Source: a plasmid. Taken from it: DNA of 64,000 nucleotides. Made by a program: the position numbers. The stretch is from the sequence record NZ_CP041047.1; one strand, written 5' to 3'. Shown piece by piece: positions 1-3,000 of this stretch; position 1 is the stretch's first letter, and each line of letters starts with the position of its first letter.

Positions 1-3000
1 TTGCCAGCGTGGCAACACGTCTCGATATCACCACCCACAGCCTTTACGCCTGGATAAAGAAGTACGGTCCGGATTCTTCCACTAATAAAGAACAGTCAGA
101 TGCTCAGGCCGAGATCCGCCGTCTCCAGAAAGAGCTGAAACGGGTTACCGACGAACGGGACATATTAAAAAAAGCCGCGGCGTACTTCGCAAAGCTGTCC
201 GACTGAGGTACGCCTTTATCCGTGACAACTCCTGTTGCTGGCCTGTTCGCCTGCTCTGTCGGGTGCTGGATGTTCATCCCAGTGGTTTTTACGCCTGGCT
301 TCAGCAGCCGCATTCACAACGCCATCAGGCAGACCTGAGACTGACAGGACAGATTAAACAGTTCTGGCTGGAATCGGGATGCGTCTATGGTTATCGCAAA
401 ATCCATCTGGATCTGCGTGACAGCGGGCAACAGTGCGGAGTCAACAGAGTCTGGAGACTGATGAAACGTGTCGGAATAAAGGCTCAGGTCGGATACCGAA
501 GCCCGCGGGCACGTAAAGGCGAGGCCAGTATCGTGTCACCCAACAGGCTCCAGCGACAGTTCAATCCGGATGCTCCTGATGAGCGTTGGGTAACGGACAT
601 AACCTACATCAGGACCCACGAAGGCTGGCTGTATCTTGCCGTTGTTGTTGATCTGTTCTCACGCAAAATTATCGGCTGGTCCATGCAACCCGGATGACAA
701 AGGACATTGTCCTGAACGCACTGCTGATGGCTGTATGGCGGCGTAATCCCGAAAAACAGGTGCTGGTTCATTCGGATCAGGGCAGTCAGTACACAAGCCA
801 TGAGTGGCAGTCGTTCCTGAAATCACACGGCCTGGAGGGCAGCATGAGCCGTCGCGGTAACTGCCATGATAATGCGGTTGCAGAAAGTTTTTTCCAGTTG
901 TTGAAACGTGAACGGATAAAGAAAAAGATCTACGGAACGCGGGAAGAAGCCCGCAGTGATATTTTTGATTACATCGAAATGTTTTATAACAGTAAGCGTC
1001 GGCATGGTTCTAGCGAACAGATGTCACCGACAGAATATGAAAACCAGTATTATCAACGGCTCGGAAGTGTCTAGATTATCCGTGGCGATTCAGCTCTTTC
1101 CTTCAACTCCAGGTAAGTCTTCGGATCGTCGTCTACGCGAATTTGTTTGAAATCGACCTTTTCAGCAGTTAGGTAATTCTTCACGCGTGCGCAAAATGGA
1201 CAATGGTCTTTCGTATAAATAACAACATTCTTAAGTGCTTTCATTTTTTCCTCGTTCATTTGGTTCATGATTTAGTCTCTTTCAAAATGGCAAGAGTATC
1301 CGCTGGGATTCCTCTGCAAATAGTTTTGGTGATATGCCTCAGCGTCGTAGAATTCTTTTTCCAGGGTGACGGTCGTGACCACTTCATTCTCGAAGCGACC
1401 GATCTCATTGACCTCATCAATCACGTTTTCGATAATCGCTTTCTGTGCATCGTCACGATAGAACGCTGCCGAGCGATACGAAGTGCCAACATCATTTCCT
1501 TGGCGATTCTTCGTAGTCGGATCATGGATTTTGAAAAAGTAATGTAGAATCTCTTCGAGAGATATTTCGTCTTGGTCGTATTCCACGCGAACCGCTTCGG
1601 CGTGCCCCGTTTTCCCTGTTATAATATCGGCGTAGGTAGGATCATCAAAATCTCCGCCAGAGTAGCCCACCTTCGTTGACGTCACACCGTCCAGACTCCT
1701 AAGGAGGTCTTCGAGACCCCAAAAACACCCTCCGGCAACGATCACATAATCTAGTTTCATAAAGCCTCCTTAGTTTTCATCCACTTACTGATTAGACTGA
1801 CTTTACAGCATGTAAAATAGATATAATATGTTCAATAGTTCGTATAACATGACCTATTGGACAGTTTACGTAGGAGCTACATATGGATGTTCTCAGTGAA
1901 ATTTTAGATAAGGTAGAGCTTACTAGCAGCTACTGGTATAGAACCTCATTTGCGGGAGACTGGGGCATCAGCCTCCCGCAGGAAGAGAATCTAGCGAGAT
2001 TTCACATCGTGACTCATGGCGAGTTTTGGTATGAGGTGCCAAAACTTAAACTTAAAGCATTGGCGGAGCAGGGCGATATTTTGATCTTTTTCAAAGGGAT
2101 GGAGCACACCATGGCCAGTGCACCAAAAATCAAGGCCGAGCCTGCGGTCGAATTTAGAGCTAAAGCCAACCTCACCGAAGCTCAAGTTTTGGAATACGGT
2201 GATCAGAGCAAGCTCAAAGCCAACGTCGTTTGCGGACATTTTTGTTTTAATGGCGGACCCGATCATCCATTCTTAAATTCGCTGCCAAATGTCGTGCATA
2301 TCAAGAGTGCTGATAACTCCCACTCGCCTTGGCTTGCCATGCTTTTAAGTATTATAGAGCAGGAAGCAAAATCAGGGCTTCCTGGAAGCAACACGTTAGT
2401 CAGAAAGCTGACCGAAATTATCTTCGTGCAAGCGTTAAGAATCCACATGTACAAATCCAATAAAAATGCTGGATTCTTCAAACTGATCGAAAATCCGCAA
2501 CTCAGCAAAACCTTGGAAGCTATTCATCATAGTCTCGATAAAAAATGGGGTCTTGACGATCTCGCCGGGATTGCGGGGATGTCGCGTACGAACTACAGCG
2601 TCAAATTTAAGGAGCTGTCAGGCATGACACCTCTTGATTATTTAACCTATTGTCGGCTTGAAAAAGCAAAGCAGCTGCTTAAAGAATCCGGTAAGTCTGT
2701 TCCCGAAGTGAGTGAAGCCATTGGGTATCCGGCACATGAACACTTTCAAAAGTTGTTTAAGAAAAAAATTGGCAAAACTCCTAAATAGATGCGCGGAATA
2801 GTAGATCACTGAAAGGGAACTCAGCCCGGATTGTGCGATCTGATCAATCGCCAAACCAACCAAAACCACCAACCGGACTGAGCGATGCCGATCATAGCAC
2901 CAATACCCCGTGGCGAACGACGCCTGATGCAGAAAGCTATTCATAAAACGCGCGATAAAAATCATGCCCGCAGACTCACGGCCATGCTGATGCTTCATCG

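Follow-up and report, generated by a model that had tools for sequence, protein, structure and literature searches.

Does the msrA-glutaredoxin-araC segment near the start of plasmid record NZ_CP041047.1 (a stretch of 64,000 nt, hereafter the window) represent a complete unit for methionine sulfoxide repair with a regulator of its own, and where was it acquired from? An earlier note on this DNA described an msrA gene, a glutaredoxin gene (grx) with a CPFC site and, divergent from them, the gene of an AraC-family regulator resembling RclR, the activator that senses hypochlorous acid (HOCl), and took the three for a dedicated repair unit obtained across phyla from a Firmicutes-like source. The listing of open reading frames (ORFs) and the Pfam search agree with the three genes at the positions given there (Table 1), and the motifs it relied on are present: MDVLSEIL, GDW, FLNSLP and VVCGHFCF in the regulator and CPFC in the glutaredoxin. 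The msrA and grx genes are indeed co-oriented and adjacent on the minus strand, with a gap of 3 nt rather than 4 bp. The pairing of an msr unit with an RclR homologue stands as well, but the description of a dedicated unit was overstated, as grx is truncated, the regulator ends short of its last helix and the greater part of the operon is missing. The locus is a remnant that three insertion sequences (ISs) have largely taken apart, msrA and the divergent spacer of 122 bp being its sole intact pieces. Window positions 1095-2783 and 3938-4273 are, with high probability, an IS-truncated fragment of a mobile island for the repair of oxidative damage; the same reading with the proposed mechanism of the regulator included is likely, and the oxidant-sensing mechanism itself is evenly balanced between acceptance and rejection.

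The way in which the locus was broken can be read from alignments with intact plasmid copies. The similarity of grx to such a copy stops within the gene, and identity to the island begins at about 1095-1096. The gene keeps 58 of 86 codons, followed by 7 codons and a stop derived from the IS3-family element; its product aligns to aa 1-59 of the intact 86-aa homologue (tblastn), and its match to Pfam Glutaredoxin (PF00462) is limited to profile positions 1-48 of 60. Of the elements of a complete glutaredoxin (CxxC, TVP and the GG(S) glutathione-binding elements), the CPFC site is present, and the lost C-terminal 28 residues, a third of the fold, include TVP and the G-x-x-G-S region. The window glutaredoxin is probably non-functional. 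Beyond grx the intact operon continues with msrB, grx2 and msrA2; in the window these three genes are missing (tblastn), and the IS3-family element stands in their place.

On the other side of msrA, ISEc33 was inserted at a TA inside araC, 11 codons ahead of the stop, and the duplicated TA can be read at each end of the element. The element is 99-100% identical to annotated ISEc33 copies and shows the characters of the IS630 family (DDE_3 domain, length of about 1.16 kb, TA duplication). The regulator is native through codon 300 of 311, its last 11 residues being replaced by one lysine and a stop supplied by ISEc33, with the result that it ends in ...GKTPK and not, as the intact form, in ...GKTPSAYRKENSEKV. 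The AlphaFold model of the regulator (predicted local distance difference test score 92) consists of a cupin barrel, a helical linker and two helix-turn-helix (HTH) motifs, and its helix at residues 300-308 is the part removed by ISEc33. A search by sequence returned no experimentally determined structure for any close relative. The window regulator, without the last helix of the DNA-binding domain, is probably impaired. The earlier note was thus right in naming IS3-family and IS630-family flanks, but these elements do more than bound the unit, since both truncate it.

The third break lies in the gene that follows araC, encoding a conserved protein of 246 aa, which is cut by IS1 at the same point in the window and in an IncHI2 plasmid (L001). 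Window positions 3937-5041 are identical to 9688-10792 of L001, the IS1 cut included, and therefore the window copy descends from an IncHI2-type arrangement that later underwent two more IS events. The search of the PLSDB plasmids by megablast found no record running through either the IS3-family or the ISEc33 junction, so both events look specific to this replicon. ISEc33 and ISAhy2 already adjoin the diguanylate cyclase gene of the island copy in L001 (2708-5001); an ISEc33 resident in the IncHI2 plasmid lineage is thus a plausible source of the insertion in araC. In its present state the locus would yield at most an extra MsrA relying on host reductants such as thioredoxin, and the inducibility of this enzyme is uncertain.

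The intact parent island shows what has been lost. In all three records opened, araC is divergent from msrA-grx-msrB-grx2-msrA2, with a diguanylate cyclase gene beyond, and the 246-aa gene stands directly after araC on the araC side. The divergent pairing of araC with msrA-grx-msrB recurs wherever a locus offers sufficient context, also where the regulator is as little as 75% identical; in the two synteny exceptions that were examined (L018 and L022), a transposase gene lies immediately upstream of araC. Conservation of the pairing across divergent relatives supports the view that the regulator is a genuine partner of the msr operon. Near intact islands are found genes of a GAF protein, an AhpD-like carboxymuconolactone decarboxylase and a DUF417 protein, as well as a further msrB-msrA set. 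The DUF417 gene, sited elsewhere in the island and not in the divergent operon, reaches 90 bits with the RclC model (cut-off 275). In environmental copies the msr operon is accompanied by flavoprotein disulfide reductases, which exceed the cut-off of a dihydrolipoyl-dehydrogenase-like model; as RclA homologues they were rejected, scoring 101-117 bits against an RclA cut-off of 740. A regulator relative of 45% identity is divergent from genes of a glutaredoxin and a flavoprotein disulfide reductase, and the latter belongs to the same dihydrolipoyl-dehydrogenase-like family.

The 246-aa gene (9727-10467 in L002, 2 nt after araC) stays with the regulator in loci where the msr genes have been lost (L017, L018 and L023), and for this reason its product may be part of the sensing unit; no Pfam or NCBIfam family matched it. 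In contigs binned to Bdellovibrionales the operon occurs also with genes of a thiolase and, in convergent orientation, RpiB and an Lpd-like flavoprotein, and with an ABM monooxygenase-like gene in L030-L032.

The surviving spacer, with a GC content far below that of the genes around it (Table 1), carries an invariant box ACTTTACAGCAT at 1800-1811 and two direct repeats 21 bp apart, TATAATATGTTCAATAG at 1822-1838 and TATAACATGACCTATTG at 1843-1859. A spacing of 21 bp is typical of the half-sites of AraC-family regulators, and the repeats are a putative operator of the regulator. The promoter scan predicts a sigma-70-like araC promoter, TTTACA-N16-TAATAT at 1802-1829, overlapping the conserved block. 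The core of the spacer is kept in loci where the regulator is just 75-86% identical, a conservation exceeding that expected from coding divergence. In L027 (9357-10000) and L030 (9355-10000) the regulatory block is doubled, standing before an inserted doxX gene and again before msrA, which argues that it may act as a portable promoter-operator unit.

MsrA itself is complete. Its catalytic Cys12 lies in GCFWG (GGCFWG at residues 10-15) and the second cysteine, Cys157, in GYSCH; it scores 193.2 bits with TIGR00401 (cut-off 108.1) and is 100% identical to the copy of the IncHI2 plasmid. Among NCBIfam models the top-scoring ones were those of bifunctional MsrB/A and MsrA/MsrB, though under their cut-offs. 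With Msr systems that have a dedicated reductant, for example PilB of Neisseria (a Trx-MsrA-MsrB fusion) or the MsrA/MsrB enzymes that depend on glutaredoxin, the island shares the coupling of Msr genes to a thiol-disulfide oxidoreductase and the two-Cys type of MsrA. In contrast to PilB, the island genes are separate and unfused and the partner is a CPFC glutaredoxin rather than a Trx domain; moreover, the coupling in the island is read from gene order alone, and in the window the glutaredoxin is truncated.

From these parts the following mechanism may be proposed for the intact island. The RclR-like regulator would bind the two 21-bp-spaced direct repeats in the spacer and, upon oxidation of Cys117 in its cupin domain, would activate the msrA-grx-msrB operon. 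MsrA would then reduce the S form and MsrB the R form of methionine sulfoxide, with both enzymes probably recycled by the co-encoded CPFC glutaredoxin.

The regulator, as the earlier note maintained, does resemble RclR (YkgD), the reactive-chlorine-specific activator of rclABC in E. coli. In an hhalign comparison the profile of 106 relatives matched E. coli RclR with 99.96% probability across RclR residues 1-281, so the homology is full-length and includes the Cupin_6 N-terminal domain; the identity there is about 25-27%. BLASTP against RclR of E. coli K-12 gave 29% identity over 193 residues (E=3e-31), so that the identity of the two proteins lies at 25-29% in all. Both proteins have the Cupin_6 sensor with two AraC-type HTH motifs and share the MDxLS start, and both genes are divergent from an oxidative-stress operon; intact islands also contain the RclC-like DUF417 gene. 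They differ in that the cupin domain of the island regulator has a 28-residue insertion and that its neighbouring operon is msrA-grx-msrB-grx2-msrA2 and not rclABC, with no rclA equivalog in the island. The regulator is therefore RclR-like in architecture and, judged by its sequence, is not an RclR orthologue; in principle of action it is probably RclR-like. According to a review (PMC7464077), RclR is switched on when Cys21 and Cys89 are oxidised and joined in a disulfide. Cys117 of the island regulator, in its VCGH motif, aligns with RclR Cys89.

Several observations weigh against an RclR-type oxidant switch at this locus. The position of RclR Cys21 is occupied by Thr21 and the first 100 residues of the regulator contain no cysteine, so the Cys21-Cys89 disulfide switch cannot operate here as published; Cys121, a second cysteine nearby, is confined to the closest clade. 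RclR is the best NCBIfam match of the regulator (NF040475), but the score is 118.3 bits against a cut-off of 400 and covers residues 108-306 only, E. coli RclR itself reaching 557 bits. For the msrA strand of the spacer the promoter scan gave no sigma-70-like promoter, a result that is compatible with an activator-dependent promoter and is not positive evidence for one. Full-text searches of the literature found no experimental study of the regulator or the island.

These points lend some weight to a different explanation, according to which the regulator senses a small-molecule ligand, as do most cupin-AraC regulators (AraC, ToxT, Rns and MtrA among them), and its link to the msr genes reflects a metabolic rather than a redox signal. 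The fold search returned as neighbours only generic cupin-AraC regulators (ToxT, Rns, CsvR and AraC), which bind ligands; certain distant homologues carry the label 'activator of mtrCDE' in their source; the Cys21 partner of the RclR switch is lacking; and the conservation of His41 and His75 (invariant) and His119 and His128 (near-invariant among the 106 relatives) would also fit a pocket for a ligand or a metal. Ligand sensing nevertheless seems unlikely, because the sole cysteine invariant in the 106 relatives (and likewise in a set of 36) is the one at the position of the redox-active RclR Cys89, two sub-clades of the regulator are divergent from thiol-redox genes (msrA-grx-msrB in one, glutaredoxin and disulfide reductase in the other), and full islands hold the RclC-like DUF417 and AhpD-like genes besides. 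Sensing of an oxidant through Cys117 is the reading preferred here, at the even balance given above.

The provenance of the fragment was traced at the DNA level. By megablast, window positions 1095-2783 match large plasmids from Enterobacter, Leclercia, Klebsiella, Citrobacter and Raoultella at 100% identity (12 large plasmids among the matches listed, the single one with typing read being IncHI2A); for Shewanella plasmids the identity is 99.9% and for Acinetobacter plasmids 93.6-97%. A species-level scan, in which one genome stood for each species and the queries were peptide patterns of the regulator, gave 20 loci. Acinetobacter was the largest group, with eight records at 92-100% identity, including the chromosome of A. 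towneri and A. lwoffii pALWED1.1 (L015, regulator 95% identical); the others included a Comamonadaceae chromosome (92%), Bdellovibrionaceae metagenome-assembled genomes (MAGs, 86%) and a Cytophagales MAG (75%). Delivery to this replicon was very probably by plasmid transfer within Gammaproteobacteria: the fragment arrived via the pool of large enterobacterial plasmids carrying it at 100% identity, and Acinetobacter and Shewanella plasmids are the proximate reservoir. In the pALWED1.1 group of Acinetobacter megaplasmids, which bear msrA/msrB on the plasmid or in integrons, the same island occurs on pALWED1.1, as it does on other Acinetobacter plasmids, and the window copy differs from it by its IS truncation. 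A published account (PMC8490738) names msrA/msrB on Acinetobacter megaplasmids in passing, as integron cassettes and common genes, and does not include the araC-linked operon or its regulator.

As to older origins, the segment is foreign to its surroundings, as the earlier note held, and a native enterobacterial gene can be rejected: the best matches listed from a search of 5,426 complete E. coli genomes do not include the msrA-araC segment, which would have headed them had it been present (the match counts being dominated by the two IS elements), and its GC content is unlike that of its flanks on enterobacterial plasmids. A different picture, that of an intact msrA-grx unit with an HOCl-sensing regulator brought across phyla from low-GC Firmicutes, has in its favour that the GC content of 1071-2788 (43.9%) is below that of the window (51.6%), that the short two-Cys type of MsrA is also found in Firmicutes and that the regulator is RclR-like. 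The drop in GC is real but smaller than the value of about 38% once given for it, the closest DNA is gammaproteobacterial, and the unit is anything but intact, with grx and araC truncated and msrB, grx2 and msrA2 gone. In the tblastn search of plasmids, MsrA of at least 90% identity was found in 45 records and all others were below 60%, with proteobacterial MsrA at 47-53% and that of Enterococcus faecium, more distant, at 43%. Neither the groups leading the species scan nor the few named relatives in the MsrA protein search (Bdellovibrionales, a partial Pseudomonas aeruginosa sequence, Micavibrio and Thermoanaerobaculia) pointed to Firmicutes, the sole Firmicutes-labelled record of the scan being a 1.8-kb MAG contig at 100% identity. 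Thus the plasmid DNA matches, the species scan and the ranking of plasmid identities lead to the rejection of a Firmicutes donor; nothing points to such an origin, and the whole scenario is extremely improbable.

The module could nevertheless have its deeper home outside Proteobacteria, in Bdellovibrionota or Bacteroidota, with an ancient cross-phylum transfer that would concern neither Firmicutes nor the step of delivery to this plasmid. Divergent syntenic copies (75-90% protein identity) occur in contigs binned to Bdellovibrionales and Cytophagales. Those binned to Bdellovibrionales or Bdellovibrionaceae fall at two levels of divergence (MsrA 90% and 83%, regulator 86%) on contigs of 322-344 kb with a GC content like that of the island, and the Cytophagales copy, at 75% identity, has a GC content of 35.5%, also like its flanks. 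The MsrA protein search returned many metagenomic variants (83-95% identity), of which many at 83-91% lie outside the Acinetobacter set. The island matches its flanks in GC in the A. towneri chromosome too, whereas in the Comamonadaceae chromosome its 42% marks it as foreign to a background of 60-63%. The binning of mobile DNA in MAGs is, however, unreliable: short contigs of 100% identity were binned to taxa as unrelated as Chlamydiae, Thiosymbion and Selenomonadaceae, which is expected of mobile DNA, and in environmental contigs the island is mobile as well, adjoining recombinase, type IV secretion system or integrase genes. This deeper home is accordingly a minor, tentative option, and plasmid transfer within Gammaproteobacteria is retained for the delivery itself.

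Table 1. Features of the window at the msrA-araC remnant and at the second Msr locus
Feature	Position	Strand	Remarks
IS3-family insertion sequence	1-1094	+	start cut by the window edge; right end abuts truncated grx
IS3-family orfA	9-206	+	ORF listing
IS3-family orfB, two frames	263-697 and 694-1074	+	each ORF matched by HTH_21 and rve (Pfam)
Truncated grx, CPFC site	1071-1268	-	native codons 1-58 at 1095-1268; Pfam Glutaredoxin E=1e-13; GC 40.4%
msrA, intact, 162 aa	1272-1760	-	Pfam PMSR (PF01625) E=1.7e-61; TIGR00401; GC 47.2%
Divergent regulatory spacer, 122 bp	1761-1882	strandless	GC 33.6%; conserved box, repeats, predicted araC promoter
araC, RclR-like cupin_6/AraC regulator	1883-2788	+	Cupin_6 E=2.9e-38; HTH_18 E=1.4e-18; native to 2783; GC 44.4%
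ISEc33, IS630 family, 1159 bp	2781-3939	+	transposase 2885-3916; DDE_3 E=1.4e-24 (Pfam)
Displaced araC 3' tail (last 11 codons and stop) and 2-nt gap	3938-3975	+	identity to L001
5' part (99 codons) of conserved 246-aa gene	3976-4273	+	tblastn aa 1-99 at 100%; cut by IS1
IS1, first copy, 768 bp	4274-5041	+	inverted repeats read directly; ORFs; common to L001
IS1, second copy	5050-5817		not identical to first copy
TetR/AcrR, DUF1471, DUF417 (RclC/RcrB-like), small ORF, msrB, msrA	24753-27500	-	flanks IS5075 and IS4321
Second msrB-msrA	24753-25686	-	other Msr locus of the window

The insertion sequences around the remnant have some features of their own. The best annotated match of the IS3-family element is labelled just 'IS3 family'. 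The frame split of its orfB falls within the integrase-core domain, and the rve domain is divided between the two ORFs (profile positions 2-42 and 46-102 by Pfam); the transposase is probably inactivated, or the split is a sequencing error. The two copies of IS1 stand head to tail with 8 bp between them, and only the first is shared with L001.

That the remnant is one of two Msr loci in the window, as implied by the earlier note, is borne out by the module with an msrB-msrA pair at 24.7-27.5 kb. This second locus is 100% identical in five Enterobacterales plasmids among the matches listed, and coverage of the 5-kb stretch reaches at least 80% in 136 plasmid records. The module looks like RcrR/RcrB, the reactive-chlorine system of uropathogenic E. 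coli, with msrBA joined to it, and like the first locus it has a putative oxidant-responsive regulator and a membrane protein resembling RclC as neighbours of its msr genes. It differs from the first in having a TetR instead of an AraC regulator, an MsrA of 53% identity and no glutaredoxin, and in being intact.

The copy in the window, a passenger fragment in decay within a plasmid mosaic rich in ISs, is of little importance in itself. AraC-family redox regulators of the RclR type and msr genes on plasmids are already known, and the genes of the island are routinely annotated; the parent island, an Msr operon under an RclR-like regulator, widely mobile on plasmids of clinical Enterobacterales and Acinetobacter, is unstudied. 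It is conceivable, if somewhat doubtful, that the intact island represents an uncharacterised branch of the RclR family, in which a single invariant cysteine, perhaps as part of a cupin pocket of the composition His/His/Cys/His, senses an oxidant in place of the Cys21-Cys89 pair, and which switches on a self-contained, glutaredoxin-recycled MsrA/MsrB operon. If this is true, the island might be a transferable determinant of tolerance to chlorine disinfectants or neutrophil oxidants, since it moves between phyla and is now found on hospital IncHI2 and Acinetobacter plasmids. Should it make its hosts more tolerant of hypochlorite or of the oxidants of phagocytes, it would give multidrug-resistance plasmids a fitness trait that is unrelated to antibiotics and open to co-selection and, if so, would also show how an RclR-type sensor works without the Cys21-Cys89 pair.

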